DNA from: Alphaproteobacteria bacterium
Lineage (GTDB): Bacteria > Pseudomonadota > Alphaproteobacteria > UBA828
Assembly: GCA_965220745.1 (NCBI GenBank)
Contig: CBDCQT010000013.1
Coordinates: 1-64,000 of the forward strand
DNA: 64,000 nt
Direction of reading: 5' to 3'
Of this stretch, positions 6,951 through 28,412 are shown one piece after another. The position numbers and the translations under genes are program-made. The notes below the pieces were generated by a model. That model made no database searches. It was not told the origin of the DNA and saw only the letters and a list, made by a program, of their open reading frames with translations. Position 1 is the first letter of the stretch; every line of letters begins with the position of its first letter.

Positions 6951-10871
<3,921 letters not shown>

Positions 10872-10898
10872 GCAAGCCCGAGAGCCCGAGGAACGGCC

Positions 10899-11300
10899 AT
10901 GGCCGACACCCTGCAGTTCGAGCTCGTCGCTCCGGAGCGGCTGATCTTCTCCGGCGACGTCGAGATGGTGGTGGTGCCGGGCGCCGAAGGCGACTTCGGC
11001 GTGCTGCCGGGCCACTCGCTGCTGCTCTCCACGCTCCGGCCCGGCGTGATCGAGATCTACGAGAACGAGAAGCCCAAGGACCGCTACGTGGTCGCCGAGG
11101 GCTTCGCCGAGGTGACGGGCGAGCGCTGCACGGTGCTTTCCACCGAGGCCTTCGAGGCCGGCGCCATCGACCGCGCCCAGGCCGACGCGCGGCTGGAGCA
11201 GGCGCAACTGCGTCTGCGCGATGCCGAGGGCGACGAGGAACGCGAGAAGTTCGAGCGCGAGGTCGAGCTCGCGGAGCTTCTGGCCGCCAACGCCGGCTGA
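10899..11300 (+). CDS. atpC: ATP synthase F1 epsilon subunit
   Basis: LVAPE, GDFGVLPGH; last gene of the operon. Confidence 0.97.
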   Translation: MADTLQFELVAPERLIFSGDVEMVVVPGAEGDFGVLPGHSLLLSTLRPGVIEIYENEKPKDRYVVAEGFAEVTGERCTVLSTEAFEAGAIDRAQADARLEQAQLRLRDAEGDEEREKFEREVELAELLAANAG

Positions 11301-11445: not shown

Positions 11446-12375
11446 ATGCCCAGGACCGTCTCAATCGCGGCGTGCCAGTTCGTTGTCAGGCCGGTCGGCA
11501 GCTTCGACGAATTCGCCGCTCACGCACGGGGGCTGCTGGACCAGGCAGACGGTGCCGACCTCGTCCTGTTCCCGGAGCTCTTCACTATCGAGCTGTTCAC
11601 GACCTTTCCGGACTGGATGGATCTGCCGGTCTCCGAACTCACCCGCATTCATGAGTACGGGAACACGAATTACACCGAGGACTATCGCCGGCTCTTCGAA
11701 AGCGAGGCCAGGGAGCGGGGGCAGCACATCGTCGCCGGCTCTCACCTGGAAAGGAAGGACGGCAGATATCTCAACGTCGCCTATCTCTACGGCCCCGACG
11801 GACTCGTTCACGTCCACGACAAGACGCATATCTTTCCGGCCGAAGCGCAGTGGTCGACCGAGGAGGGGGACACGATCGAGATGGTCGAACTCCCCTTCGC
11901 CAAGGTGGGTTTCAACGTGTGTTACGAAGCCGAGATTCCGGAATGCGCTGCGAGCCTCGCCGAGCAGGGCGCCGAGATCATCCTGTGCCCGTCGCTCACC
12001 TTCACGGAGCACGGCTTCTGGCGTGTCCGCCACTCAGCCCAGGCGCGCGCGATCGAGAACCAGGTGTACGTCGTCCATTGTGGCGGCAGTGCCGTGCTCC
12101 CGCCGGGTGGGCCGCTGCCGTCCCCTTGGGGGCGTAGCTCGATCCTGAGCCCCTGCGATACGCCGTGGGAGGCCCCGAACGGCGTCGTCGCGGAATCACC
12201 GGAGCCCAACGTCGAGACCGTGGTGCGCGGCGTGGTCGACCTCGACAGGATCCACGCAAATCGCGAGAACGGCGCCGCACCGACCTTCCGGGACCGCCGC
12301 CGGCGCTCGGACCTCTACCGGGAGTGGCCCAGCCACACCAAGCACGCGGCGGACAAAGCGCGGCTCAACGGCTAG
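11446..12375 (+). CDS. Carbon-nitrogen hydrolase (nitrilase superfamily)
   Basis: Glu-Lys-Cys triad contexts FPELF, HDKTH, VCYE; ARAIENQ. Confidence 0.9.
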   Translation: MPRTVSIAACQFVVRPVGSFDEFAAHARGLLDQADGADLVLFPELFTIELFTTFPDWMDLPVSELTRIHEYGNTNYTEDYRRLFESEARERGQHIVAGSHLERKDGRYLNVAYLYGPDGLVHVHDKTHIFPAEAQWSTEEGDTIEMVELPFAKVGFNVCYEAEIPECAASLAEQGAEIILCPSLTFTEHGFWRVRHSAQARAIENQVYVVHCGGSAVLPPGGPLPSPWGRSSILSPCDTPWEAPNGVVAESPEPNVETVVRGVVDLDRIHANRENGAAPTFRDRRRRSDLYREWPSHTKHAADKARLNG

Positions 12376-12383
12376 CCCACATC

Positions 12384-12397
12384 TCTCACCAGGGTCA
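12384..12397 (+). repeat. Left copy of 14-bp direct repeat TCTCACCAGGGTCA (candidate att core)
   Basis: Identical to 28415-28428; begins 9 bp after the nitrilase stop. Confidence 0.6.
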
Positions 12398-12573
12398 TGG
12401 TCTGCGCGGCGCTGTCCGGCCCACAGAGCAGGAAAGCCGCGAAGCGCGATGTGGTGCATCGGGCGAGACCGTATGTCCTTCTGGTCCGGCTGGTGCGGGG
12501 CGGTTCGCCCTACACTGGCTGATCTCAACGAGGGTTGCTCAGTGAGCAGGGCCTCAAGCCAGGAGGGCGAACC

Positions 12574-13686
12574 ATGGTCGACTATAGCGAGGTTTTCATC
12601 GGATTGGACGTGTCGAAGGACAGCCACGCCGTCGCGGTGGCGGAAGGCGGACGCGATGGTGAGGTCAGGTATTTCGGCGAGATCGCCTCGGATGCGGCTG
12701 CCGTCCGTCGTTTCGTGCGCAAGCTCGAGCGGCCAGGCGCACGGCTGCACTTCTGCTACGAGGCCGGCCCGACGGGCTACGGGCTGAAGCGTCTGATCGA
12801 GGGGCTCGGACACGACTGCGCCGTCATCGCACCGTCCCTGATCCCGCGCCGGCCCGGTGAGCGGGTGAAGACGAACCGCCGCGACGCCGTGAAGCTGGTA
12901 CGCCTGTTCCGGGCCGGCGAGCTGACCGAGATCTGGACACCGGACGAGGCCCATGAAGCGATGCGCGATCTCGTGCGCGCCCGCGAGGCGGCGGTGAGAG
13001 ACCGCACCCGCAAGCGCCAGGAGATCCGCTCCTTCCTGCTGCGTCATGGCAGGGTCTACGCTGGCAAGAAGGCGTGGGGCCCCAGGCACATGGCCTGGCT
13101 CCACGAGCTCAGCTTCGACTGGCCCGCCCAGAAAGTCGTGCTGCACGAGATGATCGCGGCCGAGAGACAGGAGCGCGAGCGCGTCGCGCGGCTGGAAGGA
13201 GCGATCGAAGACGCCCTGCTCGACTGGCCGCTGGCTCAAGCGGTGGACCGCCTTCAGGCGCTGCGCGGGGTCGGCCTGATTACGGCGGTCACTTTCATGG
13301 TGGAGGTCGGCGACATCCGTCGCTTCGAGCATCCTCGGCGGCTGATGGCTTATCTCGGCCTCGTGCCCTGTGAGCGCTCGACGGGCGAGAGCGTTCGGCG
13401 CGGCGGCATCACCAGGGCCGGCAACGCACGGGTGCGCCACGTGTTGGCGGAGAGCGCCTGGGCCTACCGCCATCCTGCGGCGGTGGGAAGGAAGAAATAC
13501 TTCGCGACGAGACATCTGCCGCAGGACGTCCAGGAGGTGGCATGGAAAGCACAGGCGCGCCTGACCAGGCGCTACCGCGCGCTGTGCGCACGAGGAAAGC
13601 GCAGCACGGTCGCGGTCACCGCCGTGGCCCGTGAGCTGGTCGGCTTCATGTGGGCGATCGCGCGCATGGAGCCTGCGGCGAACTGA
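12574..13686 (+). CDS. IS110 family transposase (DEDD recombinase)
   Basis: IGLDVSK, CYEAGPTG, KTNRRDA, AYLGLVP..STG, GITRAGN, AVARELV. Confidence 0.95.
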   Translation: MVDYSEVFIGLDVSKDSHAVAVAEGGRDGEVRYFGEIASDAAAVRRFVRKLERPGARLHFCYEAGPTGYGLKRLIEGLGHDCAVIAPSLIPRRPGERVKTNRRDAVKLVRLFRAGELTEIWTPDEAHEAMRDLVRAREAAVRDRTRKRQEIRSFLLRHGRVYAGKKAWGPRHMAWLHELSFDWPAQKVVLHEMIAAERQERERVARLEGAIEDALLDWPLAQAVDRLQALRGVGLITAVTFMVEVGDIRRFEHPRRLMAYLGLVPCERSTGESVRRGGITRAGNARVRHVLAESAWAYRHPAAVGRKKYFATRHLPQDVQEVAWKAQARLTRRYRALCARGKRSTVAVTAVARELVGFMWAIARMEPAAN

Positions 13687-13699
13687 TCCGAGGGAGAGC

Positions 13700-13900
13700 G
13701 ATCGCCCATAGCGCGCATAGCGGCGGGGACGCGGCAACGACGGGGGAACTCCCGACGACGCTTTGTGGCCGGCATCGCCGACGCCCGATGCGAGACAGGA
13801 CCAGCCCCGGACGCAGACACGGACATGCGGTCTCGACCCGCGCATCAGAGCTTGTTCACCAACGTCCTGGGCCGCGTTCCCACCGCTATGCGCGCGACTT
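13700..13900 (+). ncRNA. Putative IS110/IS1111 guide RNA (seek/bridge RNA) region
   Basis: GCGCGCATAGCGGCGGGGACGCGGC (~13710) can pair with GCCGCGTTCCCACCGCTATGCGCGC (~13871-13895); lies downstream of the transposase. Confidence 0.55.
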
Positions 13901-14687
13901 GCGAAACTCAGGCGCCGCTTGGCGCCTGATAGGTCCGTTCGAACTCTTGCTTGACGAAGGACATCAGAGCGGTTTGACGTACTCCGTGGGCCGGAGAGCG
14001 TCGCCCTTCGGGTCGCGCCCAGGCGCCCGCCCGCGGCGTCGCGGGCCTCAACCGTATTCCCCGATACGCTGTCCTCAGGAAGTGCCATGCGGACGCCTGA
14101 GCCCGCGTGCAGTATCCACATCAGCCTGGTGTGGGAGCACTCGAACATTCAGCAGGGCTCTGAGGGGCTGACCCTCGGCTTCAGTTGCGAACTCGCAGAC
14201 CCATTCCATGTCTTCGGCGGTTTGCAGGGAACTGACATTGATCTTGGCCAGACCGCCGAAGGAGACCGCAAAGGCAATCTCATCGGCGGAGGGTTTCGGT
14301 ATATCCAACAGACCTTGCCAAGGGGTCTGGACGAGTATGGACGAGTATGGAGATCATCAGCACGCAGAAGAACGACGCGGCAGTGCGATACATTGGCATA
14401 ACTTATGAGCGCTATGAGTGTATTTTCTTGGACGCTATATGACTAAATCGCATAGATTTTTTCTCTGTCTGGATTCGTACCGGTTGGTCGGTACCGCGGC
14501 TTGCCGAACATGGAGGGACAGACATGGAGAATTCGCGGTATGTGGGAGCGCGAACGGGCGCGGACTCCTTCGCCGCAGGGGCCATTTTGACGCCGGCCGG
14601 CGGGCGCGCGACGGTGTCTGTAAGACCTTGCGAACATCCCGCGGAATGGGATCGGCCCCGCGTTCCGCTTGACGGAATCCGGCATCC

Positions 14688-15848
14688 ATGACTTCGGAAT
14701 CGAGCATGCCGGCGGGCTCTTCGATGCCACCCGTTTTTGTTACCGGTTCGGCCGGGCATGTCGGCGCCAACCTCGTGCGCCGGCTGCTCGACGAGAGCGT
14801 GCGGGTCCGAGTGTTGTTGAGACACGAGGACAACAACGAGGGCCTGGAAGGTCTCGAGGTCGAACGCGCGTTCGGCGACATTCGGGATCTGGATGACATC
14901 AGGCGGGCGATCACGGGATGTCAGGGCGTCTATCACTGCGCGGCCTACGTCTCGACCATCGAAGGCAACCGCGCCCATCGCCGCGACGTGTTCGAGTGCA
15001 ACGTTCTCGGTACCCGCAACGTGCTGCAGGCGGCGCGGGAGGCGGAGGCCGGCCGGGTGGTGGTGACGGGCTCTTTCAGCGCGGTCGGATACGACCTGGA
15101 CGATCCCTCCGCTCCCAGCAACGAGACCATGCAGTTCTACCCCATGGAGCGCACGATGCCCTACGAGCGCAGCAAGTCGCTCGTCGAGCAGGAGTGCTGG
15201 CGCGCGGCGGCATCAGGGCAGGACGTGGTGGTCGCGACGTGCTGTGCGGTGGTGGGGGGCGCCGACTTCTTCCCCTCGCGACTGGGAAGAACCTTATGCG
15301 ACTACACCAACGGCAAGCTCCGTGCCTACGTCGATGGCGGTTTCGAGTTCGTCGCGGCGCGCGACATCGTCGAAGGGCACTTGTTGTGCATGCACCACGG
15401 TCGCTCGGGCGAAAAGTACATCTTCAGCACCGAGTACAAGACCATCTCGGATATCCTGGATCTCTACGAGGAGGTCTCCGGCGTCCCGCGGCCGCGCCGG
15501 CGAATTCCGACCCGCCTCATGCTCGTCTTTGCCGAAATCGCGAGCTTCTATCTGAGCCGGGTTCACCCGGGCTTTCCCCAGCGCTTCACCCCCGGCGCCA
15601 TACGCCTGTTGCGAAAGTGCCGCCACGCCGACATCTCCAAGGCGAAACGGGAGCTCGGCTATCGGCCGACCGGCCTCCGTGCCGCGGTTCATGAGGCCTA
15701 TGCGTTCCACTACGGCCGCAACAAGATCGCGAACCCGCACGCGAAGCGCCCGTGCGAGGACGCCGCGAGTCGGCATGTTGCGCGTGAGGAGGGCGATCCC
15801 GCGCCGGGCCAGGGCATGCGGATGATGGCAGGCGGGAGCTCGACGTGA
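14688..15848 (+). CDS. Extended SDR / 3-beta-HSD-like NAD(P)-dependent enzyme, putative SdmB-type sterol C-4 decarboxylase/reductase
   Basis: TGSAGHVG, YERSK; overlaps the Rieske gene in the sterol operon. Specific function inferred from context. Confidence 0.75.
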   Translation: MTSESSMPAGSSMPPVFVTGSAGHVGANLVRRLLDESVRVRVLLRHEDNNEGLEGLEVERAFGDIRDLDDIRRAITGCQGVYHCAAYVSTIEGNRAHRRDVFECNVLGTRNVLQAAREAEAGRVVVTGSFSAVGYDLDDPSAPSNETMQFYPMERTMPYERSKSLVEQECWRAAASGQDVVVATCCAVVGGADFFPSRLGRTLCDYTNGKLRAYVDGGFEFVAARDIVEGHLLCMHHGRSGEKYIFSTEYKTISDILDLYEEVSGVPRPRRRIPTRLMLVFAEIASFYLSRVHPGFPQRFTPGAIRLLRKCRHADISKAKRELGYRPTGLRAAVHEAYAFHYGRNKIANPHAKRPCEDAASRHVAREEGDPAPGQGMRMMAGGSST

Positions 15849-16942
15849 GGGCGGCGCCCGACGCACCGCCCGGCTTCGAGGACGCCGGCAACCTGCGCCA
15901 GCAGGCGCGTGCTGCGGGCATGGACCCGAATTACTGGTATCCAGTCGAGGAAGTGCACCGGATGAAGCCGGAGACGGTGGTCGAGGTCGTCTTCTGGAAG
16001 CGTTCCATCGCGCTCTTCCGGGGAAAGGATGGCACCTTCCAGGCGGTCGAGGATCGCTGCGCGCATCGCCAGCTCAAGCTCTCCCTGGGCGACGTGCAGG
16101 GATGCCGGCTCGTCTGCGCCTACCATGGCTGGGAGTATGGCGGGAAGGGGCGTCCCGCCGGAGTGCCCCATGACCGCGAGGGGCGAAGCTTTCCGAATCT
16201 TGCGCTCAAGACCTATCCGGTGAAGGTCCGCTACGGTCTGATCTGGCTCTTCCCGGGAGATCCGGCGCTGGCGGAGGAGCGCCGGATTCCGGACATTCCT
16301 GAGCTCGAGGGTTCCGGCCGCTGGGCCTGCGTGCCGCTCTGTTTCACCTGGTCGGCACACCACTCGATGGTGATCGACAATGTGAGCGACTTTACCCACG
16401 CACACCTGCACCGCCGCTACCGGCCCTTCGACGGGGCTACCCTGACCCGCTGCGAGACTCTCGGCGACAACGTGCATCTCGCCTACGACACGCACGTCGG
16501 GCGCGGGCGCATCTCGGGCCTTTTCGTCGATCATCGGCGGCTCAACACCAACCGCATGGAGCTTTGCTACGAGTACCCCTACCAGTGGTCGAACACCGAC
16601 GACGCGATCAAGCACTGGCTCTTCGTGCTGCCGGTCGACGAGCGCACCAGCCGGGTGTTCTTTCTGTTCTATTTCAAGTCGCTGAAAGTACCGCTGCTGC
16701 CGGTGCGCATTCCCCGTTTCGCCATGACCGCGGTCATGAAGGTCTCCAATCGCCTGCTCATCGCTCCCCTGCTCGCCCAGGACCGGTTCGCGCTGGAGGC
16801 GGAGCAGGAGGGTTACGAAAGACACTGGGACGCCCGTCCCGTCGAGTTCAATCCGGTGGTCAGGGCCTTTCAGAAGGTGACCGTTCGCAAGTGGCAGGAG
16901 CATCTGGCGCGCGGGTCGGAGAGCGACGATGCCGCCGCCTGA
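15845..16942 (+). CDS. Rieske non-heme iron oxygenase, putative SdmA-type sterol C-4 methyl oxidase
   Basis: CAHR...CAYHGW Rieske motif; DNVSDFTHAHLH iron site; sterol operon context. Confidence 0.75.
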   Translation: MRAAPDAPPGFEDAGNLRQQARAAGMDPNYWYPVEEVHRMKPETVVEVVFWKRSIALFRGKDGTFQAVEDRCAHRQLKLSLGDVQGCRLVCAYHGWEYGGKGRPAGVPHDREGRSFPNLALKTYPVKVRYGLIWLFPGDPALAEERRIPDIPELEGSGRWACVPLCFTWSAHHSMVIDNVSDFTHAHLHRRYRPFDGATLTRCETLGDNVHLAYDTHVGRGRISGLFVDHRRLNTNRMELCYEYPYQWSNTDDAIKHWLFVLPVDERTSRVFFLFYFKSLKVPLLPVRIPRFAMTAVMKVSNRLLIAPLLAQDRFALEAEQEGYERHWDARPVEFNPVVRAFQKVTVRKWQEHLARGSESDDAAA

Positions 16943-18029
16943 AGCGCTCAACCTCTCATCGGCGCTGTCGGGCAAGACCCTGCTCGAGGCGGCGGCGATG
17001 GTGCTGGGGTTCATCGCCGTCCTTTTCCTGGCTTCGCTGCTGCTGCCGGGTCGCCGGATCACGGGCCCGGATGCCGACGGAAACGAGCGCGTCTACAAGC
17101 TCAACGGCCTCTCTCTGTATCTGATCGTCATGATTGCGGCGTGTGGCGCGCAAGCCTCCGGCGTGCTCTCCCTCTCGGTGCTGCATACCCACCTTCTCGC
17201 CCTCTTCGTCGTGGCGAACGGATTCGCGTTCGCCCTCTCCGGCTGGCTCTACCTGCGCGGGGTACGGAAGCCTCATGCATCGCCCGGATCATGGCGGGGT
17301 TTCTTCTTCGGTGTGGACGCCGCTCCGGCCTGGTTCGGGCTTGATCTGAAGCTCTTCAGCTACTGCCCCTCCCTCATCGGCCTGGCCCTCTTCAACGCAT
17401 CGTTTGCCGCCGTGCAGTATGAGACTTACGGCGAGTTGACCCTGGCAATGATGCTCTATCAGACCTTCACCTTCCTCTACGTGCTCAACTACTTCCAGTT
17501 CGAACAGGGGATGATCCATACCTGGGACATCGTCCGCGAGCGCTTCGGATGGATGCTGGTCTGGGGCGATTACGTGCTGGTGCCCTTCTTCTACTGTCTT
17601 CCCGGCTGGTGGCTGGTTCACGCACCGGAGCCCTTGTCTCCGGCCGCCGCCGCCGGGATCGTCGTGCTCTTCGTTTTCGGCTTCTGGCTCTTCCGCGGGT
17701 CCAACCAGCAGAAGCACCGCTTCAAGCGCGATTCCAACGTCAGGATCTGGGGCAAGCCCGCCCGGACCCTGGAAGGCCGCCTCCTGGTCTCCGGGTTCTG
17801 GGGCATCGGCCGGCACCTCAACTACACCGGCGAGATCTGCGTCTACCTCGCCTTCGCCCTGACCACCGGGCTTACGTCCTGGGCTCCCTTCCTGTTGCCG
17901 GCGTGGCTCGCGGGCTTGCTGTGGCACCGTTCGAGACGCGACGAGCGTCGCTGTCGCGCCAAGTACGGCGAGCTGTGGGAGCGCTACACGCAGCGGGCGC
18001 GCTTCGCGATGCTGCCCTTCATCCATTGA
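16929..18029 (+). CDS. ERG4/ERG24 family sterol reductase, probably delta-14 reductase
   Basis: TWDIVRERFGWMLVWGD, FRGSNQQKHRF, LLVSGFWGIGRHLNYTGE, DERRCRAKYG; multiple hydrophobic segments. Confidence 0.88.
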   Translation: MPPPEALNLSSALSGKTLLEAAAMVLGFIAVLFLASLLLPGRRITGPDADGNERVYKLNGLSLYLIVMIAACGAQASGVLSLSVLHTHLLALFVVANGFAFALSGWLYLRGVRKPHASPGSWRGFFFGVDAAPAWFGLDLKLFSYCPSLIGLALFNASFAAVQYETYGELTLAMMLYQTFTFLYVLNYFQFEQGMIHTWDIVRERFGWMLVWGDYVLVPFFYCLPGWWLVHAPEPLSPAAAAGIVVLFVFGFWLFRGSNQQKHRFKRDSNVRIWGKPARTLEGRLLVSGFWGIGRHLNYTGEICVYLAFALTTGLTSWAPFLLPAWLAGLLWHRSRRDERRCRAKYGELWERYTQRARFAMLPFIH

Positions 18030-18037
18030 GAGCGGAG

Positions 18038-19447
18038 ATGGCCAACCGAACCGACAGCATGGCGACCCTGCCTACGGCGAATCTGCCGCCGCGGGCGGAC
18101 GAGCCCCTTCCCGAGCTTGCGGGCAGCTGGCCGCTGCTCGGCCACTTGCCGGAGTTCCAGAGAGATCCGGTCGCCATGTTGAGCCGCGGCTGGCGCGAGC
18201 ACGGCGAGCTCTTCCGCTTCCGGCTCGGGACCCGCGCTTTCGTTCTCTTCACCGGGCCCCAGGCCCACGACTTCTATTTCAGGACGCCCGAGGAGCAGCT
18301 GAACGCGAAGGCCGTCTACCGCTTCACCGTGCCCATCTTCGGACGCGGCGTGGCCTACGACACCTCCCCGGACATCATGGCGGAGCAGCTGGGCTTTCTC
18401 TTTCCAGCGCTCCGCGAGGCGGCAATGCGCAGGTTCGCCCTCATCATGTTCGAGGAAGCGCGGCGGTTCGCCGACGCCCTCGGGAAGGATGGGGAAATCG
18501 ATCTGCCGCACGCGATGAACGAGCTCACGGTCAAGATCGCCAGCCGCTGCCTGATTGGACAGGAGGTCCGCGATCGGGTGGACACCGGATTCGCCGAGAC
18601 CTACCACGACCTGCAGAAGGGCATTAACACCCTGGGTTTCTTTCTTCCCAGGCTTCCCGTTGCGTCGCATCGAAAGCGCGACAGGGCCCGGCGACGGGTG
18701 GCGGAGCTCTTCGGCGGGATCATGGCGGCGCGCCGGGATGCCGGGGCCAGCCCCGACGACTTCATGCAGACGCTCATGAACGCCCGGTACAAGAACGGCC
18801 GCGCCCTGAGCGACGACGAGATCACGGGGATCCTGCTGACGGTGCTGTTCGCGGGCCAGCACACCAGCGCGGTGCTCGCGACCTGGACCGGCCTGGAGCT
18901 GCTCCGGGCGCCGGCGTACCTGGCGCGGGTGAGAGATGAGGTGCAGGACGTCTACCGCGAAGCGGGGAGCATGAGCATCGACAGTCTCCAGCACCAGCCG
19001 GCTCTGGAGAATGCCGTCCGCGAGTGCGAGCGGCTGCACCCGCCGCTGATACTGCTGATCCGAAAGGTGCTCGAACCCCTGCGCTACGGAGGCCGTGTCG
19101 TGCCCGCCGGCACCATGGCCATGGTGTCGCCGGCGGTCTCTCACCGCCTGCCCCACATCTTCGCCGACCCGGAGCGCTTCTTCCCCGACCGATTCGCGCC
19201 TCCCGCCAGCGAGGACAGGCAACACCGCTACGCCCTGATCGGCTTCGGCGGCGGCAAGCACGCGTGCATGGGTAAGAACTTCGCCTACATGCAGCTCAAG
19301 GCGATCTGGACCGTTCTGCTCGATCGTTTCGACTTCACTCCCAGCGGCGCGTTTCCGCGTCCGAACTACGGCAGCTGGGTGACGGGACCCGAGAGACCGT
19401 GCCGGGTCCGCTACCGTCGCCGCGCGCAGCCGAGCGTCTTCCGATGA
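18038..19447 (+). CDS. cyp51: Sterol 14-alpha demethylase, cytochrome P450 CYP51
   Basis: YRFTVPIFGRGVAYD and AGQHTS CYP51 signatures, ExxR, FGGGKHACMG heme motif; ATG 18038 after GGAG. Confidence 0.92.
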   Translation: MANRTDSMATLPTANLPPRADEPLPELAGSWPLLGHLPEFQRDPVAMLSRGWREHGELFRFRLGTRAFVLFTGPQAHDFYFRTPEEQLNAKAVYRFTVPIFGRGVAYDTSPDIMAEQLGFLFPALREAAMRRFALIMFEEARRFADALGKDGEIDLPHAMNELTVKIASRCLIGQEVRDRVDTGFAETYHDLQKGINTLGFFLPRLPVASHRKRDRARRRVAELFGGIMAARRDAGASPDDFMQTLMNARYKNGRALSDDEITGILLTVLFAGQHTSAVLATWTGLELLRAPAYLARVRDEVQDVYREAGSMSIDSLQHQPALENAVRECERLHPPLILLIRKVLEPLRYGGRVVPAGTMAMVSPAVSHRLPHIFADPERFFPDRFAPPASEDRQHRYALIGFGGGKHACMGKNFAYMQLKAIWTVLLDRFDFTPSGAFPRPNYGSWVTGPERPCRVRYRRRAQPSVFR

Positions 19448-22400
19448 GCGGCGCCGCGTCGCGGCGTTACGACGTGGCCATTGTCGGCGCGGGGCCGGTC
19501 GGGAGCCTGTGCGCGCTCGCTCACGCGCGGAAGGGCGCCCGGGTGGTTCTGCTGGAAGCGAATCCCAAGGGGTCAGAGCGCCTGGCGGGCGAATGGCTGC
19601 ATCCACCTGGGGTACAGATACTGCAGGACTTCGGGATCGGGCTCGACACCCTGCCCCGCAGCGCTACGGGCAGGGGTTTCGTGGTGTTCCCGGAAGACGG
19701 CTCGGAGCCGATCGTCCTTCCCTACACGAATGGCTCGCAGGGTCTGGCTTGCGAACACGCCTTGCTCGTCTCGACACTGCGGGAAGCCGTCGAGAAGGAG
19801 GCGGATGTGGATTTCTTCACCCATGCGCGGGTGAATGCGGTCGAAGACGAGCGGCTGTCCTACAGCAACAACGGCACGGTTCACACCCTCGACGCCGCGC
19901 GGATTGTCGGCGCCGACGGCCGGGCGTCGATCGTGCGCCAATCCCTGGGCCTGTCGACAGACCCGATGCTCTGCTCGCGGATGCTGGGGATCACGGTGAG
20001 CGACGTGAGCCTGCCCTTCGAGGGTCACGGGCATGTGCTGCTCGGCGGGCCGGGGCCGATTCTCGCATACGGTTTGGCAAAGGGTTGCGTCCGGATCATC
20101 GTCGACGTTCCGCTGGACCGCTGGACACGCCAGGACCGGATCGGCTTCCTGACCGAATCCTATGCCGTTCTGCTGCCGGAAGCTCTCAGGCCGGGGTTCG
20201 TCGAAGCGGTGCGGGCGGGGCAATTCCACGTTGCGGCCAATCAGCTGCGGCCGCGAGTCACATACGGTACCCCGCGTCGTGTGCTGATCGGCGACGCGGC
20301 CGGGCACTACCATCCCATGACGGCGGTCGGCATGACCCTCGGTTTCGGTGACGCGCTTGCCCTCGCCGAGAGCGGCAGCTTTCGCGAGTTCGCCGCCGGG
20401 CGTTTCCGGGCCACCCAAGTGCCGGAGCTGCTCGCCATGGGGCTCTACGAGGTCTTTGCCGATCATCGGGCCGAGGCGGTGGCGATGAGACACGCGGTCT
20501 ACCGAGGATTGCGGACAAACTCCTATTACCGGGACCGGACCACGCGGATACTCGCCTGCGAAGACCGATCCGCGCTCGAGATGGGTCTCGCGTTTTTCGC
20601 AACGGCGGCCCGTGCGGCGGCCGTGGAGATTCCGCTCTCCTTGCGCCGGTTCGCTCCGCGTCGGGGCCTGAAGATCTTCGGGGCGCTCACTGTTCGTCTC
20701 TTGTGGCTCCTGCGCTGGGCTCTGCAGTTGCGCCAGTCGAGACGCCAGGGCGGGCGGAATGACGAGCGAGCCCTGGACAGCCTGGCCCGCGCACTTTTGC
20801 ACTCCATGCCGCCGCGGCCCCACGCTTCCGGGTCCGGCCGGCCGAAGGACTCCGAGGCGCCCGATGCCGGTCCGGCTCTGGGGAGCGCGACCGCGCACCT
20901 CCTGAGCCTCCAGGGCGAGGATGGCGGCTGGGAGGGCGAGATGGTCTGGTGCCCCATGCTCACCGCGCAATATGTGCTGCTGCACCACATCATCGGGCGG
21001 CCGCTCGAGTCCGGCCGGCGCCGGCGCGTGTTGCGCTCGTTCGAACGGACCCGTCTCGACGGGGGCGCATGGGGCCTGCACGAGCACTCTTCGCCCCACC
21101 TCTTCGTCACCGCCCTGGTCTACGTCGCGGCCAGGCTGCTCGGGGTCGAGCGCGACGATCCGCTGGTCGAGCCGGCCCGGCGCTTCATCCAGGCTGAGGG
21201 GATTCTCGGTATTCCGAGCTGGGGAAAGTTCTGGCTGGCGCTGCTGAACCTCTACGACTGGCGTGGAGTCAACGCCGTTCTGCCGGAACTGTGGAGCCTG
21301 CCGCGCCGCTTACCCCTGCACCCCTCGAATTGGTACTGCCATACCCGGCTCATCTACATGGCGATGGCGGCGATCTACCCGCATCGCTTCCAGGCGCCCG
21401 TCACGCCCGCGATCGCGTCGCTGCGGGAGGAGCTGTACCCCCATGGCTTTGCCGAGGTCGATTTCTCCGCCGCCCGCAATTCCCTGCGGGAGGCCGACCT
21501 CTACGCGCGGCCGAGCGTGTGGCTCAAGGTTGGATACAAGATTGCGCGCGTGTTCAATCGGCTCCACGGCAAACGCCTGCGCGCCCGATGCACGGAGGCG
21601 ATCGTCCGACAGATCAGATGGGAGCTGCAGACCACCAGCCATACGAGCATCTCTCCGGTGAGCGGCCTTCTCAACATGCTTGCCCTGTGGCTGCGCGATC
21701 CGGACGACGCCGATCTGCGCCAGGCGCTTGCGAAGCTGGACGACTGGATCTGGGAAGACGAGGAAGAGGGTGCGCGTGTCGTCGGCGCGAGAAGCGCCTC
21801 GTGGGACAGCGGCTTCGCGTTGCAGGCGCTGGCGGCGGTGCCCGCGTTCGACGGGGCAGGGGACGCGCTGCAGCGCGGCGCCGACTTCCTGCTCGGAGAA
21901 CAGATTGCCGCCAGCTTCGAAGGGTTTCGCGAGGCCTATCGAACCGACCCCAGGGGCGGCTGGTGCTTTGCCGGAGGATGGCACGGCTGGCCGGTGAGCG
22001 ACTGCACTGCGGAAGCGGTGCTCGGACTTCACGCTGCCGGTCGCGGTGCTGCGCACGCAAGCGCGTTGCGCGATGCTGTCGGGTTCATGCTGCGCTGCCA
22101 GAACCGCGATGGCGGCTTCGGCAGCTACGAGGCGCGACGCTCGGCTTTCGGTCTGGAGTGGATGAATCCGGCCGAGATGTTCGGCGATTCGATGACCGAG
22201 CAATCCTATGTCGAGTGCACCGCGTCCTGCCTCGCGGCGCTCGCCGCCTGCATGGAGGACGTTCCGCAAATCGCGAACGGAGCGGTGACGGGCGCCATGT
22301 CCAGGGCCGGTGCCTGGCTTCGCCGGACCCAGGCAAGCGACGGGTCGTGGCGCGGCGTATGGGGAGTTCAATTCATTTACGGCACCCTCTTCGGGGTCAG

Positions 22401-22851
22401 GGGTCTTCTTGCCGCCGGGGCCGGCCCCGGCGATCCGGCGCTTCGCTCGGCCTGCCGCTGGCTGCTGGAGCGCCAGCGAGAAGACGGCGGATGGGGCGAG
22501 CACCACAGCGGATGCCTGACCGGCCAGTATGTCCCGCACGACGAAAGCCAGGTCATCCAGACGGCGTGGGCGTTGATCGCGCTCCTCGAGGCGGCCGAAT
22601 CGAACTGGACCGCGATTTCGCGCGGCGCCCGCTACCTGCTCGACACGCAGGACGCGGACGGGACATGGCCCAAGCAGGACATGGCGGGCGTCTTCTTCCG
22701 CACGGCGCTCCTGGATTACGTGCTGTATCGACAGTATTTCCCGCTGCACGCGCTCGCCCTCTACGAGCAACGCCGCCGCCAGCGGCTGGGTCTCGCCGCC
22801 CACGCTCCGTGTGCCGCCGACACGTCGCCGCCCGAAGCGGCTGCCGCCTGA
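19444..22851 (+). CDS. Squalene epoxidase-oxidosqualene cyclase fusion protein (1135 aa)
   Basis: N-half: GAGPVG, RLAGEWLHPPG, ADG, GDAAGHYHPMTAVGMT. C-half: QW repeats, PSWGKFWL, WYCHTR, GWPVSDCTAE, YVECT, WGVQFIYG. One uninterrupted ORF. Confidence 0.92.
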   Translation: MSGAASRRYDVAIVGAGPVGSLCALAHARKGARVVLLEANPKGSERLAGEWLHPPGVQILQDFGIGLDTLPRSATGRGFVVFPEDGSEPIVLPYTNGSQGLACEHALLVSTLREAVEKEADVDFFTHARVNAVEDERLSYSNNGTVHTLDAARIVGADGRASIVRQSLGLSTDPMLCSRMLGITVSDVSLPFEGHGHVLLGGPGPILAYGLAKGCVRIIVDVPLDRWTRQDRIGFLTESYAVLLPEALRPGFVEAVRAGQFHVAANQLRPRVTYGTPRRVLIGDAAGHYHPMTAVGMTLGFGDALALAESGSFREFAAGRFRATQVPELLAMGLYEVFADHRAEAVAMRHAVYRGLRTNSYYRDRTTRILACEDRSALEMGLAFFATAARAAAVEIPLSLRRFAPRRGLKIFGALTVRLLWLLRWALQLRQSRRQGGRNDERALDSLARALLHSMPPRPHASGSGRPKDSEAPDAGPALGSATAHLLSLQGEDGGWEGEMVWCPMLTAQYVLLHHIIGRPLESGRRRRVLRSFERTRLDGGAWGLHEHSSPHLFVTALVYVAARLLGVERDDPLVEPARRFIQAEGILGIPSWGKFWLALLNLYDWRGVNAVLPELWSLPRRLPLHPSNWYCHTRLIYMAMAAIYPHRFQAPVTPAIASLREELYPHGFAEVDFSAARNSLREADLYARPSVWLKVGYKIARVFNRLHGKRLRARCTEAIVRQIRWELQTTSHTSISPVSGLLNMLALWLRDPDDADLRQALAKLDDWIWEDEEEGARVVGARSASWDSGFALQALAAVPAFDGAGDALQRGADFLLGEQIAASFEGFREAYRTDPRGGWCFAGGWHGWPVSDCTAEAVLGLHAAGRGAAHASALRDAVGFMLRCQNRDGGFGSYEARRSAFGLEWMNPAEMFGDSMTEQSYVECTASCLAALAACMEDVPQIANGAVTGAMSRAGAWLRRTQASDGSWRGVWGVQFIYGTLFGVRGLLAAGAGPGDPALRSACRWLLERQREDGGWGEHHSGCLTGQYVPHDESQVIQTAWALIALLEAAESNWTAISRGARYLLDTQDADGTWPKQDMAGVFFRTALLDYVLYRQYFPLHALALYEQRRRQRLGLAAHAPCAADTSPPEAAAA

Positions 22852-22910
22852 TCCCCGCCCTGAGTATGGGTGGCCTCGCGCAGTGCCGCGCGGACGAAGG
22901 CCCGCTTCGT

Positions 22911-23948
22911 TCAGTCGCGCGGGCGCCCGGGTTTGCGGGCCAGGAAAAAGAACATCGGCGTGAAGACGCCGGACTTGCCGCCGTCCACCAGCGCGTCCGC
23001 TCCCGCATTCAGGAGCGTGCTGACTGCGCGGGCGCCCTCGGGAAAGAGCCGCAGCCGTTCCCCCACCCGCAAAGTGAAATTAGTCAGAACGCGGCCGACC
23101 GGCGTGCGCGGAATACTCGAAAGACTGAGGTCGCGGCCTTGCAAGGAACGGTACCACGGCATCTCCGGGTCCGCTTCGGGTGCGCGGTCGCGCGCTTCCA
23201 GGAGCTCGAACCCGGCCGTCTGCAATGCGGCGGAAACTTCCGACGTGGTCGCGATATCCGGCAGCCCATTCCCGGCCATGATATCGTTTTTTATTCGCCG
23301 GTGCTCCGTCTTGCCGGTATCAAATATGTCGGTAACGCACCACTCGTAGCCCGCGAAACAGGCCCCCGGACGCAGCACGCGCAAGACCTCGCGGAACGCC
23401 GCTGTCTTGTCGGGTGCGTGGGGCATGGACTCGATCGCCATGGCGGCATCGTAGCGGTCGTCGTCGTCGGGAATCTCCATGTAGTCACTGTGAATAAAGC
23501 GACATAACGACTGGACATCCCGAGTGTGCAGTCTTGCGCGCTCGATCTGGTAGGCGTTGTTGTTGACGCCGACAAAGCTCGCCCCGAAATGACGGGCCAG
23601 ATTGCCCATCGGTCCGCCGACCCCGCATCCCAGATCGATTACTTGCATACCCGGCTTCAGGGACAGCTTTTCAGCGAGGAAATGCTGGTGTCTGAGCAGC
23701 GATGCCTTGAAGCTCTCGCCCCGGCTGCGGGGTGCGAAGTGAAAGGATTGGCCCCAACCGAACTCGTAGAAGTCGGTCGCCAGGTCGTAGTAGCGACTCA
23801 CGAACGAGCGATAATGCTCTTTCCTGTGTTCCAGGCCGGCGTCAAAGATTTCGGTGTATCCATCGACCGTGGACTTTACTTCGTCCGGAGCGAGGCCCGC
23901 GAGGAAGCGCGCTTTCGATCGGGTGGCGGAGGTGCGATTCATGGGCAC
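22911..23948 (-). CDS. smt: Sterol C-24 methyltransferase (ERG6/SMT family)
   Basis: YYDLATDFYEFGWGQSFHFA, DLGCGVGGP, IESMPHAP, YEW, GNGLP. Start may be ATG 23942. Confidence 0.92.
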   Translation of the reverse strand: MPMNRTSATRSKARFLAGLAPDEVKSTVDGYTEIFDAGLEHRKEHYRSFVSRYYDLATDFYEFGWGQSFHFAPRSRGESFKASLLRHQHFLAEKLSLKPGMQVIDLGCGVGGPMGNLARHFGASFVGVNNNAYQIERARLHTRDVQSLCRFIHSDYMEIPDDDDRYDAAMAIESMPHAPDKTAAFREVLRVLRPGACFAGYEWCVTDIFDTGKTEHRRIKNDIMAGNGLPDIATTSEVSAALQTAGFELLEARDRAPEADPEMPWYRSLQGRDLSLSSIPRTPVGRVLTNFTLRVGERLRLFPEGARAVSTLLNAGADALVDGGKSGVFTPMFFFLARKPGRPRD

Positions 23949-24130
23949 ATTCTGCCAGAGTCATACGCCGTCCCCAAGACCGGAAAGTCATGGGAAACTC
24001 CGATGCCTCGCTTCATGACGCCGATATCCACGGAGTCCCAGGCGCAGCGCCCTTGTTCGGGGCGCCGGACTTTCCACAGGGTACAATGGGGCGAGAGGCA
24101 ACGCCGCAGCGCCAGAGAGGATGGGACCAC

Positions 24131-24865
24131 ATGGCTGAAAAGCAAGCCGCGCAAACCCGTTCGGATCGCGACACCCACCGGACTCGGTTGGCGATTGCGC
24201 CGGTCGTATTCACGGGGCTGGTCATCGCAATTCTGACAGCGTCCGGCATCGGTGCGCGCTACGGCGTCCGCGGGGATTTCGACGTTATCCATGGGCTTCT
24301 GATCCTCTTCTTTTCCGTAAATCTGGTGATCTGTCATTGGGAGATATGCCTGTTCTTCAAACGCGACTACATCGAGAAACGCGCTCAATACTGGCGCGAA
24401 CGCTCGCGAGAGACGGGCCGGACGTCGGCGGTCGAATTCCTCACCGGAAGGGTTCCCTTGACGCGAATATTGTCGTCGATGGTGTGGGCGGACGTCTGGG
24501 CCACGTATTCCCAGTTCGACAGTTCCTACGCGGACCGGCGCACATACGGTTACAACGTAGATATCGCCAACGGCTTCGTAACGCCGGTACCGACGCTGAT
24601 CCTCTTTGCCGCCTTCACCGTCGATTTCTTGCCCGCCCTCGTCGCCGGCATTATGGGAGCGATGATATTCTGGCAGTTGACCTACGCGACGTCGGTCTAC
24701 TGGGTCAGCTTCTTCGTGGCCAATCGACAAAGCCGCCTCGGCCGAAAGGATATGTACATCTATATCTGGGCGCTGAATTGCCCGTGGGTGCTGTTCGCCC
24801 TGCTGGGACTCTACGTCTCGATTCGCCTGATCGTGAACGGCGACTACAGCGTTCTCGGCTATTGA
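24131..24865 (+). CDS. Membrane protein, putative EBP/EXPERA-type sterol delta8-delta7 isomerase
   Basis: About five TM segments; CHWEI, VWATYSQFDSSY (WxxYxxxDxxY) and WALNCPW resemble EBP motifs; adjacent to sterol genes. Confidence 0.6.
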   Translation: MAEKQAAQTRSDRDTHRTRLAIAPVVFTGLVIAILTASGIGARYGVRGDFDVIHGLLILFFSVNLVICHWEICLFFKRDYIEKRAQYWRERSRETGRTSAVEFLTGRVPLTRILSSMVWADVWATYSQFDSSYADRRTYGYNVDIANGFVTPVPTLILFAAFTVDFLPALVAGIMGAMIFWQLTYATSVYWVSFFVANRQSRLGRKDMYIYIWALNCPWVLFALLGLYVSIRLIVNGDYSVLGY

Positions 24866-25007: not shown

Positions 25008-25420
25008 TCAGTATCTTACTAGTCTTCTGGTGAGGAGTTGAACGCTGGCGATGAAGAGCCACGCTTGGGCGGTGGCGACGGTGGCCTCGAAGTCCTTGGC
25101 GAGCCGTCGATTGCGCTTCAACCAAGACAGTGTGCGCTCGACCACCCAGCGGCGCGCCAGGATATCGAACCCTCGCGTATCGGCCGGGCGTTGGACAATC
25201 TCCAGGGTCCACCGACCGATCCGCTCCAGAGCCGCCGCGAGCTTGGGGCCGGCATAGGCACCATCGGCGAAGACGTGACGCAGCCAGGGGAAGGCGTGGC
25301 GGATGGACGCGAGCACCGAGGGGGCGCCGTCGCGATCCTGGATGTTGGCAGCGTGGACCTGAGCGGCAACCAACAGGCCGCCGGTGTCGGTGAGGATGTG
25401 GCGTTTGCGCCCCTTGATTG
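25008..25420 (-). pseudogene. IS5 family transposase, C-terminal fragment
   Basis: IKGRKRHILTDTGG, DGAYAG, RRWVVERTLSWL..RRLAKDFE; N-terminal part absent. Confidence 0.85.
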
Positions 25421-26175
25421 TCGGACGGCGGGGCGGACGGCATCGCCATCCCGCGCTCGGCGCTATGCGCCGTTGCGCCATGCGCCAGCATCATCCTTCC
25501 CGTATCGTGTCGCGATACGTCAAGCGTTGCTGCGCTCCGCCATGGCCCGCGCCCAACTCCGTCCCATGGTGGATGCTTTCCCCTGCCATCCAGCCCGTAC
25601 CCCGTCGCACGCCCATTGTTCGCGCCACGCCCCCGGACCGTTGCTTGAGCCGGCGCTCTCTCCCCCGGTCTGCACATCGATGGCGCTCATGGTGGTTCGC
25701 ACCGGATTCGCCAAGGCGGCCGCCATCGCCTTGTCGCTCATCCCTGCTGAATCGGAGCGCTTCGCCACTCTCTCCCCGCGCCCCGATTATCTCGACACTC
25801 TCAATCAGCTACGAATAAGCGCCATGCCGCCCCACCTTGCCAACCAGGAAGGTGCACCGCTCAGGTGAAGCGCCCGGACCGATACTATCTGTTGTTGTTC
25901 CCGCCGAGCAACTCACTACATGATGTGTCTCGTGGTGAGTGAAGCACGCGAGAGAGAAGGTAACCCATCACACCTGTGCAAGCTGACGCTTGCGGGAGCG
26001 AACCGGAGCCGCCTGACTGGCCATGGAGGCCGAACGATATAACGCCTGTACAAGGACTTGGCGTGCCCCTTCACGCAGTCGCAGCTGGCCATGAAAGGCT
26101 GCCGGCGTCGGGTACTGCTAGTCAGGCCCCGGCGGTCATGAACGCGTTCGCCCAACGGTTCGGGAACCTGCCGCC

Positions 26176-26429: not shown

Positions 26430-27585
26430 GCGGTCGCGGTCCAGTGGTGGCGAGGCGGCCGGCGAGCACGCGGAACAGGGCAGCGTCGGGACAGGCCGAG
26501 GCGAAGTGGATGCGGATGCGCGCGGCTCGCTCGATCACCTGGGCGCCAATCTTGAGCAGGCTCCGACGGATGGTGGCGAACTCGGACCAGGCGAGTGGCA
26601 CCGCGTCGCGGAGCGCGAGCATCAGCCAGTAGGCGGCGGTGTGGATGATCAGCCGGAACTGGTTGGCGAGAGGGCTCTGGCGGGAGGTCCGGTCGGAGGC
26701 GAGCTGGGCCTTGTGCTGCTTGATCAGGTTTTCCGCCTGTCCGCGCGCGCAGTAGGTCCCTTCCTAGAGGCGGCAGGGCTCGCCCTCGAGCGAGGCGACG
26801 ATGTAGCGCGCGGCGTCGCCTCCAGTCGGGCGACGATCTTGCGCTCGCGGCGCCATGAGCCGGCGGCGTAATCGAAGCTGGCAAAGCCGCGCATCCTCTC
26901 CGGCCCGGCCTCGGCGCGGCGCACCTTGAGATCGTCGCCGACCTCGTAGGCCAGCGCGTGCAACGCGGCGTTGCCGGCCAGGCCGAAGATGTAGTCGACG
27001 CCGTTCGCCTTGCACCACGCCATCGCCTCGGTCCGGCCGTAGTGGCTGTCTCCCCGGAAGACGATCCGGGTGTGCGGCCAGTGGCGGCGGATGCGGCGGA
27101 CCAAATGCTTCAGCAGGGTGCGGACCTCGGGCCCCGACGGCGCCTTGCCCGGACGCAGGAGAACCGCCACCGGCTTGCCGCTCTCCACATGATAGACGTG
27201 GACGGGAAGGAAGCAGCGCGTGTCGTAGTAGGCGTGGAAGAGCGAGAGCTGCTGGTGCCCGTGCACGGCATCGCAGGTGTCGTCGATGTCGAGCGTGATC
27301 GCCGCCGGCGGGGAAGCGAAGGAACGGCAGAAGATGTCGACCAGCGCGGCCGCCAGACGCCCTACCTCGATGCGCGACGGCGCGTTCTCCAGCCGGCACA
27401 TGGTCGGCTGCGAGCACAGATCGCGCCCGCTCTCCGGCGCCCGGCCCACCGCCAGCTTGAACAGCGGATCGCCGCGCAGCGCGTCGCAGTCGTCGGCGTC
27501 CTCGTATCCGCAGGCGATCGCGAACATGCGGAAGCGCAGCATCGCCGGCAGCGTGTGGACCACCCGGTCGGGGTCGCGCCACCCC
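26430..27585 (-). pseudogene. IS1380 family transposase, truncated and frameshifted
   Basis: AIACGYEDADD, SQPTMCRLEN, LDIDDT, RGDSHY, RGQAENLIK; frameshift near 26815, stop near 26764, 5' end missing. Confidence 0.9.
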
Positions 27586-28224
27586 CGGATGGAACCGGCC
27601 GCCGCCCGCCAGCCAGAGATCGACGGGATTGACCAGCCCTTCGTAGTCAACGCAGGGCCGGCGATAGACCGAGCGCAGCAGGGAGATGCACTGATTCGCG
27701 GTCGCCCAGCCGTGTTTCTCGGTGATGCGGTTGAAACGGTCCTCCACGTCTCTGCGCGTGATGCTGTCGAGGGAACGGCCGAGCCAATCCGCGAGAGGCC
27801 GCTCGAACCGATCGCGATAGTTCTCGTTGGTGCTCGCGTTCCGCTTGGGATTGGCCGCCATGTACTGCTCGAAGGCCTGTTTGAGCAGCGGCATGCGCCG
27901 GCTCCTGGCACGGGTCGCCGCCGGGTCTTCGCCCACGGCGACCATGCCCAGCAGCCTGTGGGCCTCGCGCCGTGCGTGCTCGGCCGCCATCCTGTCGCAG
28001 CGTCCGATGACGAGGCGCTTGTTGGGCGCCGCCCTGCCGCCCGCGCCGGGGCGGTAGTTGACGATGTAGGACTTGACGCCCGAGGGATGGACCTGGACGC
28101 CGAAGCCTGTGAGCTTGTCGTCCCATGCGATCCATGGCTTGTGGGCGGGCTTGAGGCTGTCGATGGCGCGCTTTGCGATTGTGAGCTTGACGCGCGCGAC
28201 GCGCTTTCCGGGTGTGACTGGCAT
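27586..28224 (-). pseudogene. Tyrosine integrase, N-terminal arm-binding and core-binding part only
   Basis: KLT..AIDSL, WDDKLTGFGVQVHPSGVKSY, IGR (DUF4102-like); runs directly into IS1380 sequence, so the catalytic domain is lost. Confidence 0.85.
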
Positions 28225-28412
28225 GAGGGAATGATGGCATGGCGAAACATACAAATCAACACTACCCACAACACATGAAAGTAACTTCAGGACCGCTCGG
28301 GGGCCTCCAGGCCGCTTGAGGCCGGATAGATCATTTCAACACCACAACAAAATCAACCTCCAGGGCTCTCCAGGCATCTCAGGATACCAGGAGGAACAAC
28401 AGATCACTATGG

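Follow-up and report, generated by a model that had tools for sequence, protein, structure and literature searches.

Whether a bacterium living in sponges can carry, in a single chromosomal block, the genes for making side-chain-methylated sterols, and whether such a block holds anything still undescribed, is the question raised by a stretch of alphaproteobacterial DNA (GenBank assembly GCA_965220745.1, contig CBDCQT010000013.1). The stretch, called here the window, makes up the first 64 kb of a contig that is 1.08 Mb long and belongs to a near-complete genome of 4.82 Mb (13 contigs, even G+C content), and positions are given in its numbering. Positions 14688–24865 are occupied by seven genes, six of them encoding enzymes of known sterol families and the seventh, at the 3′ end, a membrane protein named here G7. 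This gene island for side-chain-methylated sterols is real, intact, and bacterial, and its type has already been published from sponge symbionts; G7 is apparently its sole undescribed part. The gene structure, protein families, folds, distribution, and sponge habitat described below were established directly. Taken together, the region is very probably a horizontally mobile sterol-biosynthesis island of the msbA–F/CSG type (CSG, cluster of steroid genes), located in the chromosome of an uncultured sponge-dwelling alphaproteobacterium.

Gene organization of the island

The island begins with two plus-strand genes predicted to act in C-4 demethylation, the first (14688–15848) coding for an SdmB-like NAD(P)-dependent short-chain dehydrogenase/reductase (SDR; msbA equivalent) and the second (15845–16942) for its partner, an SdmA-like Rieske oxygenase of 365 aa (4-methylsterol monooxygenase; msbB equivalent), both assigned with NCBIfam and Pfam. 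They are followed on the same strand by genes for an ERG4/ERG24-family sterol reductase of the Δ14-reductase-like kind (16929–18029; msbC equivalent; Pfam and a PDB sequence match), a CYP51 sterol 14α-demethylase of 469 aa with no fused ferredoxin (18038–19447; msbD equivalent; PDB sequence matches), and a squalene epoxidase/oxidosqualene cyclase fusion of 1135 aa (19444–22851; msbE equivalent; Pfam, TIGR models, and PDB). The sterol C-24 methyltransferase (SMT; 343 aa, msbF equivalent, Pfam) is encoded on the minus strand (22911–23942), and G7 (244 aa), for which a structural model and a profile indicate an EXPERA/EBP-like fold and which is a candidate sterol isomerase or sterol binder, on the plus strand (24131–24865). 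The frames of all seven genes are open, as read from the sequence and its open reading frames (ORFs).

The SDR and Rieske oxygenase genes overlap by 4 nt and the latter overlaps the reductase gene by 14 nt; the CYP51 gene, whose ATG at 18038 is preceded by GAGAGCGGAG, starts after a gap of 8 nt, and the fusion gene, with its ATG at 19444, overlaps it by 4 nt (ATGA). The fusion and SMT genes are convergent, with 59 nt between them, while the SMT and G7 genes diverge from a 188-nt intergenic region (23943–24130, read from the sequence), the G7 ATG at 24131 being preceded by GAGAGGA. Public gene calls with identical boundaries exist for six of the seven proteins; the exception is the SDR, whose start is uncertain and possibly lies up to 12 codons further in. 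A first-pass annotation of the window, made from the sequence alone, had described seven open genes with these coordinates, overlaps, and gap, all of which were reproduced, and the enzyme families it gave to six of them agree with the Pfam, NCBIfam, and PDB sequence comparisons. It had also noted the lack of a C-5 desaturase and of a Δ7 or Δ24 reductase in the window, where indeed neither a second ERG4/ERG24 gene nor an FA_hydroxylase gene was found.

The six core enzymes

The best NCBIfam match of the SDR, full-length and far ahead of other models, is NF052578 (SdmB) with 302 bits against an equivalog cut-off of 600, and that of the Rieske protein, again full-length, is NF052579 (SdmA) with 402 bits against the same cut-off; Pfam Epimerase and 3Beta_HSD also match the former, Rieske and VanA_C the latter. 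The reductase scores 224.8 bits on PF01222 (ERG4_ERG24; cut-off 27) and its closest PDB sequence is 4quv, ‘Delta(14)-sterol reductase’ (E 1.4e-64). By its sequence it is a member of the Δ14-sterol reductase (ERG24/TM7SF2) family, with a predicted bond specificity. The 56 best PDB sequences for CYP51, headed by 6mcw and ranging in E from 1.5e-104 to 1.7e-58, are all CYP51/14α-demethylase entries (named CYP51, sterol/lanosterol/obtusifoliol 14α-demethylase, or cytochrome P450), and unrelated P450s start only at E 1.9e-40 or weaker.

The fusion protein consists of an epoxidase part (approximately residues 9–406) and a cyclase part (approximately residues 480–1124), matched by Pfam SE, FAD_binding_3, SQHop_cyclase_N, and SQHop_cyclase_C. 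Its residues 9–304 align with human squalene monooxygenase 6c6n (E 1.9e-26) and residues 480–1120 with human lanosterol synthase 1w6k (E 1.2e-128), and the general cyclase model TIGR01787 gives 505 bits, above its cut-off of 322.7. The catalytic motif of the cyclase, GWHGWPVSDCTAE, contains DCTAE, with Val two residues ahead of the catalytic Asp and His six residues ahead of it, the latter presumably a cycloartenol-type residue. Because of this His, the sequence allows the product to be called only probably lanosterol. The Val ahead of the catalytic Asp was the basis for calling MsbE a lanosterol cyclase (Mohanty et al. 2020, PMC7074536). Finally, the SMT scores 73.6 bits on Sterol_MT_C (PF08498; cut-off 21.7) and also matches the class-I S-adenosylmethionine methyltransferase domains Methyltransf_11 and Methyltransf_25.

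Proposed pathway

From these genes we infer every enzymatic step, the step order, and the product. Squalene would be supplied by HpnC/D-like genes located elsewhere in the genome, and the fused enzyme would epoxidise it and then cyclise it, probably to lanosterol, as the Val before the catalytic Asp suggests. CYP51 would take off the 14α-methyl group, the ERG24-like reductase would saturate Δ14, SdmA and SdmB would bring about the loss of at least one C-4 methyl group (SdmAB homologues differ in the extent of C-4 demethylation; Lee 2023), and the SMT would methylate C-24. G7 would most likely perform a proton-driven double-bond shift via a carbocation, the first candidate being the nuclear Δ8→Δ7 shift and a less likely one a shift in the alkylated side chain. 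Judging by this gene content, 24-methylenelophenol is a plausible product. The first-pass annotation held that the cluster alone could make such a product: the enzyme families it named are present, but the claim understates the toolkit, more sterol genes being found elsewhere in the genome.

Fold and conserved residues of G7

The AlphaFold2 model of G7, built on an alignment of 60 diverse relatives, is confident, with a pLDDT of 92.9 and a pTM of 0.88. Among PDB structures compared by Foldseek, human EBP takes ranks 1 and 2 (8w0r_A and 6oht_A, probability 1.00, TMq 0.58 and 0.54, TMt 0.66 and 0.63 over 217–220 columns), all remaining matches listed having a TM of 0.35 or less. The family itself is well conserved, with 506 matches in one database and, in a second, 256 clusters formed at 50% identity. 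Weak matches to PF05241 (EBP/EXPERA; best E 0.0029) come from five of the 60 relatives, and 22 of the 30 language-model neighbours of G7 belong to a set carrying PF05241. Aligned by hhalign with 23 bacterial EBP-family proteins (a group related to a Zavarzinia ‘emopamil-binding family protein’, with many Pfam-positive members), the G7 profile gives an E value of 3.9e-5, at a probability of just 70.6% and with residues 109–236 alone covered; the match of the same profile to one single EBP-family protein is weak (probability 14.7%).

Human EBP uses His76, Glu80, Glu122, Asn193, and Trp196 in catalysis or ligand binding, and Trp101, Tyr104, and Tyr111 are essential residues of its cavity (Long et al. 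2019, PMC6549186). In G7, E71, W123, Y126, Y133, D144, N216, and W219 are kept in 90–100% of the 60 relatives. W123, Y126, Y133, and D144 have the spacing of EBP W101, Y104, Y111, and E122 (offset +22), N216 and W219 match N193 and W196 (offset +23), and E71, the counterpart of E80, sits in the second transmembrane helix; in the hhalign register, the same G7 positions fall on residues that are invariant among the bacterial EBP-family proteins. G7 thus resembles human EBP (6oht, 8w0r) in its predicted fold and in counterparts, assigned by spacing and hhalign, of E80, W101, Y104, Y111, E122, N193, and W196, but differs from it in a sequence identity of approximately 10–12%, in an extra helix (residues 78–95) after the second transmembrane helix, and in its own invariant Asp130 and Asn147. 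By its modelled fold, G7 is an EXPERA-fold relative and not a Pfam EBP member: the EBP fold and the profile link are there, yet a Pfam match is not. Given its conserved residues, it is likely to be a sterol isomerase of the carbocation type whose proton relay is modified.

Distribution of G7 and its neighbours

One genome per prokaryotic species was scanned, yielding 247 stretches that encode relatives of G7; the locus counts below refer to the best 80, with neighbours sought within 10 kb of G7 by targeted tblastn and some loci cut by contig ends. All 80 come from metagenome-assembled genomes (MAGs) and encode proteins 57–98% identical to the window's G7, the phyla represented being Pseudomonadota, Thermodesulfobacteriota/Dadabacteria, Acidobacteriota, Gemmatimonadota, Nitrospirota, Rhodothermota, Latescibacterota, Binatota, Spirochaetota, and Nitrospinota. 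A cyclase is encoded in 20 loci and an SMT, usually adjacent and divergent, in 26; a conserved FAD oxidoreductase is found in 16, and a second type of ERG4/ERG24 reductase in nine, four of these with a DUF1295 protein. The search for the same synteny in other MAGs, proposed in the first-pass annotation, found all eight query parts in 13 of the 80 loci (Alpha- and Gammaproteobacteria, Nitrospirota, and Binatota; 59–99% amino acid identity). Eight loci follow the gene order of the window throughout, and a further two are truncated by the edge of the locus. The nearest named record, 97–99% identical at the amino acid level, is another MAG labelled Alphaproteobacteria bacterium.

In the G7 tree, 13 changes of phylum label were counted against a minimum of nine, while shuffled labels average 43.6. 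The tree is therefore mostly grouped by phylum, which means that transfers between phyla were few and that the tree by itself supports transfer only modestly; identities of 57–76% between phyla weigh more. High cross-phylum identity together with locally deviant G+C content at third codon positions (GC3) fits the horizontal gene transfer inferred by Kelly et al. for the core genes of the CSGs.

G7 is tied to sterol-modifying genes in several contexts, and not strictly to de novo synthesis. In four Acidobacteriota MAGs (loci L043, L044, L053, and L056) an ERG4/ERG24 paralogue and a DUF1295 (steroid-reductase-like) protein are encoded approximately 1.5–3.6 kb upstream of G7; with no cyclase in the locus, the arrangement looks like a sterol-tailoring module without synthesis. 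A 1.9-Mb MAG labelled Thermodesulfobacteriota/Dadabacteria (locus L006) contains G7 and three Sterol_MT_C matches and no match at the level of an oxidosqualene cyclase, and GC3 of its G7 gene is 0.67, compared with 0.37–0.61 for the neighbouring genes (AAA ATPase, HTH-SocA antitoxin). In another Alphaproteobacteria bacterium MAG (L005; proteins 84–93% identical), CYP51, the fusion, SMT, and G7 are present and no SdmB, SdmA, or ERG24 match was found in the 4 kb upstream; this cluster may be rearranged or truncated.

Genomic setting, mobility, and habitat

Upstream of the island lie the chromosomal genes atpD and atpC for the F1 beta and epsilon subunits (9444–11300, plus strand; Pfam ATP-synt_ab and ATP-synt_DE_N) and, between them and the island, an IS110-family transposase gene (12535–13686, plus strand; DEDD_Tnp_IS110 and Transposase_20). 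Directly downstream of G7 there is a gene for a 157-aa DDE transposase (25008–25481, minus strand; DDE_Tnp_1, PF01609, E 4.5e-26), followed by a DDE_Tnp_1_4 transposase gene (26724–28274, minus strand; PF13701, E 7.7e-91). The island is thus bracketed by three transposases of different families, the middle one of which may be a fragment. The 1 kb between the IS110 element and the SDR gene (13687–14687) may hold the promoter or a regulatory region of the operon; its three ORFs match no Pfam family and include no ferredoxin or reductase partner, and the same was found for a long antisense ORF at 12196–14148.

GC3 of the seven genes is 0.76–0.87, with the lowest value (0.76) for both SMT and G7, compared with a median of 0.90 over 23 further genes in the window. 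When 18 additional genomes from the genus were searched, G7 was found in six and the cyclase in the identical six, approximately 1.4–2 kb from G7 and on the same strand, which, counting the window's own genome, gives seven island carriers among 19 genus genomes searched. Neither gene was found in the remaining 12, including single-contig genomes 99–100% complete, or in 12 genomes outside the genus, and G7 turned up in none of another 400 genomes drawn from the phylum; one canonical EXPERA gene was found in a sample of 400 genomes of the phylum. As to the habitat, ‘sponge metagenome’ runs of three studies contain 40–51% of the sampled words of the window, and in one such run (X10) contigs with approximately 98% identity extend over the cluster, G7 included. 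The flanking transposases, the patchy distribution in the genus, the lower GC3, and the sponge matches together point to an accessory element in a lineage of alphaproteobacteria associated with sponges.

Weighing of alternative explanations

Several observations weigh against the view of the region as a working pathway of de novo sterol synthesis. Neither Sdm protein reaches the equivalog threshold and the cyclase, with 750 bits on TIGR03463, stays below the cut-off of 851, so that all three are best matches rather than curated memberships; the cyclase has the His mentioned above; and a Pfam scan of the cluster found no redox partner for CYP51 or the Rieske protein. Three RNA libraries from two studies yielded contigs over relatives of the SDR-to-cyclase genes at 90–95% identity (one spans 14729–17406), which belong to other strains, may derive from DNA, and give only a weak hint of expression. 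They leave the G7 region 23925–24758 uncovered in the three runs and, coming from relatives, are silent on expression in this organism. It could be argued from the origin of these contigs, from the accessory character of the island within the genus, and from the hopanoid-type cyclase encoded in the same genome that the island does not serve de novo synthesis in vivo, and either tailors sterols or triterpenoids of the sponge host or is silent cargo. We find this improbable, as the frames are intact and translationally coupled, epoxidase and cyclase are both present and fused, the genome has squalene synthesis genes, and the CSG core genes are under purifying selection (omega 0.13–0.26; Kelly et al. 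2022, PMC9531527). That the cluster is sponge or algal DNA, mis-assembled or mis-binned, might be suspected from its eukaryote-typical enzyme families and from the contamination estimate of the genome (5.18%), but is hardly credible: the 1.08-Mb contig that contains the window is even in G+C content, atpD and atpC lie beside the cluster, the genes of the cluster are uninterrupted and overlap like those of an operon, the C-4 demethylation genes are of the bacterial SdmAB type, and the same cluster occurs in single-contig bacterial genomes of 2–5 Mb. The contig, the operon overlaps, and the distribution thus exclude eukaryotic contamination, and the bacterial origin assumed in the first-pass annotation, with no chimeric insert, holds.

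The de novo pathway being the preferred reading of the island, the part played in it by G7 has to be judged separately. We propose tentatively, as something possible rather than probable, that G7 represents an unannotated bacterial branch of the EXPERA/EBP proteins, a true sterol double-bond isomerase lacking EBP's catalytic His, which travels both with the island and alone across ten or more phyla of sponge symbionts, including small genomes with SMTs and no cyclase. The name ‘EXPERA-like’, given to the seventh gene by the first-pass annotation, is borne out by the fold and profile comparisons and not by Pfam, where G7 has no match at E ≤ 10, PF05241 included (its own genome has no PF05241 match either); PDB sequences likewise gave no match with the single sequence or with the profile, the Foldseek E values of the two EBP matches are weak (0.019 and 0.15), and the proton-donor His76 is unmatched, Ile67 standing four residues before E71. 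Moreover, 40 of the 80 loci contain none of the five sterol-linked families tested, and five genomes chosen from cluster-free G7 loci all lack a cyclase-level match, for which reason the Δ8 substrate may be absent there, while three of the five have SMT matches. Some EXPERA members are non-catalytic. In another reading, which has a real but less than even chance of being right, G7 would stand outside the nucleus pathway as a sterol-binding or sterol-handling membrane protein or as a side-chain isomerase partnered with the SMT, and the island would then make Δ8 sterols. The absence of the catalytic His is in line with this, and so are the frequent pairing of G7 with an SMT, more common than with any other neighbour, its occurrence in SMT-bearing genomes with no cyclase-level match, and its place beside an ERG4/ERG24 paralogue and a DUF1295 protein, not a synthesis cluster, in Acidobacteriota. 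On the other hand, the conservation of buried polar residues used by EBP in catalysis and carbocation stabilisation fits an enzyme better than a carrier, and G7 and the cyclase co-occur perfectly in the comparison set of 31 genomes (19 of the genus, the window's included, and 12 from outside it), seven having both and 24 neither. Since G7 is also found in symbiont genomes with SMTs and no cyclase, it may be a Δ8→Δ7 isomerase, a side-chain isomerase, or a sterol binder. If the proposed isomerase branch is true, the symbionts would remodel host sterols, and the inference of a eukaryote-only origin of EBP-type isomerisation (PMC8237579) would be weakened.

Other sterol and triterpenoid genes in the genome

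Several genes related to sterols and triterpenoids lie outside the window. Squalene can be supplied by the products of two adjacent SQS_PSY genes on contig C13, and a squalene-hopene cyclase encoded on contig C12 is its second consumer; three FA_hydroxylase-family genes are also present. Contig C12 carries, at approximately 133.8–137.3 kb, a second SMT gene (minus strand; 343 aa, 45% identity to the island SMT), which is divergent from a plus-strand gene for a 679-aa fusion of GPP34 (Golgi phosphoprotein 3) with a cytochrome P450, a LolA-like gene coming next (positions in locus L003: SMT 9858–10889, minus; GPP34–P450 11309–13348, plus).

A second ERG4/ERG24 reductase (120 bits) is encoded on contig C10 at 677047–678144 (locus L092: 9042–10187, minus strand), adjoining genes for a class-I methyltransferase and a short-chain dehydrogenase. 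It is 32% identical to the island reductase and 46% to the G7-adjoining paralogue of Bryobacterales MAGs, and by its sequence it may be a Δ7 or Δ24(28) reductase. The same contig encodes, at 600914–602272 (locus L094: 6918–8276), an amine-oxidase-type FAD oxidoreductase of 452 aa, 83% identical to the product of a gene neighbouring G7 in other phyla. This oxidoreductase (approximately 451 aa) is 70–83% conserved across phyla and is often encoded directly beside G7 or a sterol cluster, as in locus L013 (5430–7013).

Comparison with published systems

Steranes with alkylated side chains serve as fossil evidence of early eukaryotes and of sponges, a reading complicated by bacterial islands that could make such sterols; this point was already in print between 2020 and 2023. 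The first-pass annotation called side-chain alkylation a trait widely treated as eukaryotic, a premise made out of date by the in vitro work of Brown et al. 2023 (PMC10070321), in which bacterial SMTs produced 24-methyl, 24-ethyl, and 24-isopropyl side chains. Nor is the arrangement new, a matter which that annotation had left open: the six-gene order, the fusion, and the opposite-strand SMT have been published as msbA–F and as CSGs.

The msbA–F genes come from a gammaproteobacterial symbiont of the sponge Melophlus sarasinorum and were tied by Mohanty et al. to sarasinoside saponins (PMC7074536). The msb locus shares with the island the six genes in identical order, the SDR/Rieske overlap, the bifunctional epoxidase/cyclase with its ‘key valine’, and the SMT, and its host, like the present one, encodes squalene synthase elsewhere in the genome (PMC7074536). 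The hosts differ, that of the island being an alphaproteobacterium; and the genes flanking the ends of msb are said in the main text to resemble no sterol genes, so that no G7-like gene was recognised there (PMC7074536). CSGs were described in 115 of 537 Ircinia MAGs from ten phyla, with horizontal transfer inferred, and were absent from the open-ocean MAGs that Kelly et al. checked (PMC9531527). They resemble the island in the core ERG24–CYP51–LSS, the 5′ SDR (‘DFR’) with a hypothetical protein, and the 3′ opposite-strand SMT; the main text leaves SdmA and SdmB unannotated and mentions ‘ERG2’ once, for ‘several’ CSGs (PMC9531527). The clusters of Brown et al., from MAGs of sponge symbionts and environmental bacteria, likewise combine SMT with sdmAB and erg homologues, and a fused squalene monooxygenase/oxidosqualene cyclase was noted; neither ‘isomerase’ nor ‘erg2’ appears in the main text of that paper (PMC10070321). 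Three uncharacterised genes have been reported to accompany SMT (PMC8237579). A full-text literature search for a bacterial sterol EXPERA protein returned only an unrelated cancer paper, and in the main texts considered G7 is apparently undescribed.

The sterol pathway of Methylococcus capsulatus involves SdmAB, a CYP51–ferredoxin fusion, and 8,14-Bsr (Lee et al. 2026, PMC13277303). The island has in common with it the SdmAB-type C-4 demethylation, and the Methylococcus CYP51 (6mcw) is the closest to its own, whereas it differs in having a canonical ERG24-type reductase, a CYP51 with no ferredoxin, an SMT, and an EBP-fold protein. To these published systems the window adds a contiguous, intact example whose alphaproteobacterial genome is near-complete, evidence for the accessory status of the island within a single genus, and, in G7, a concrete and testable candidate for a step or function left unnamed in the published descriptions.

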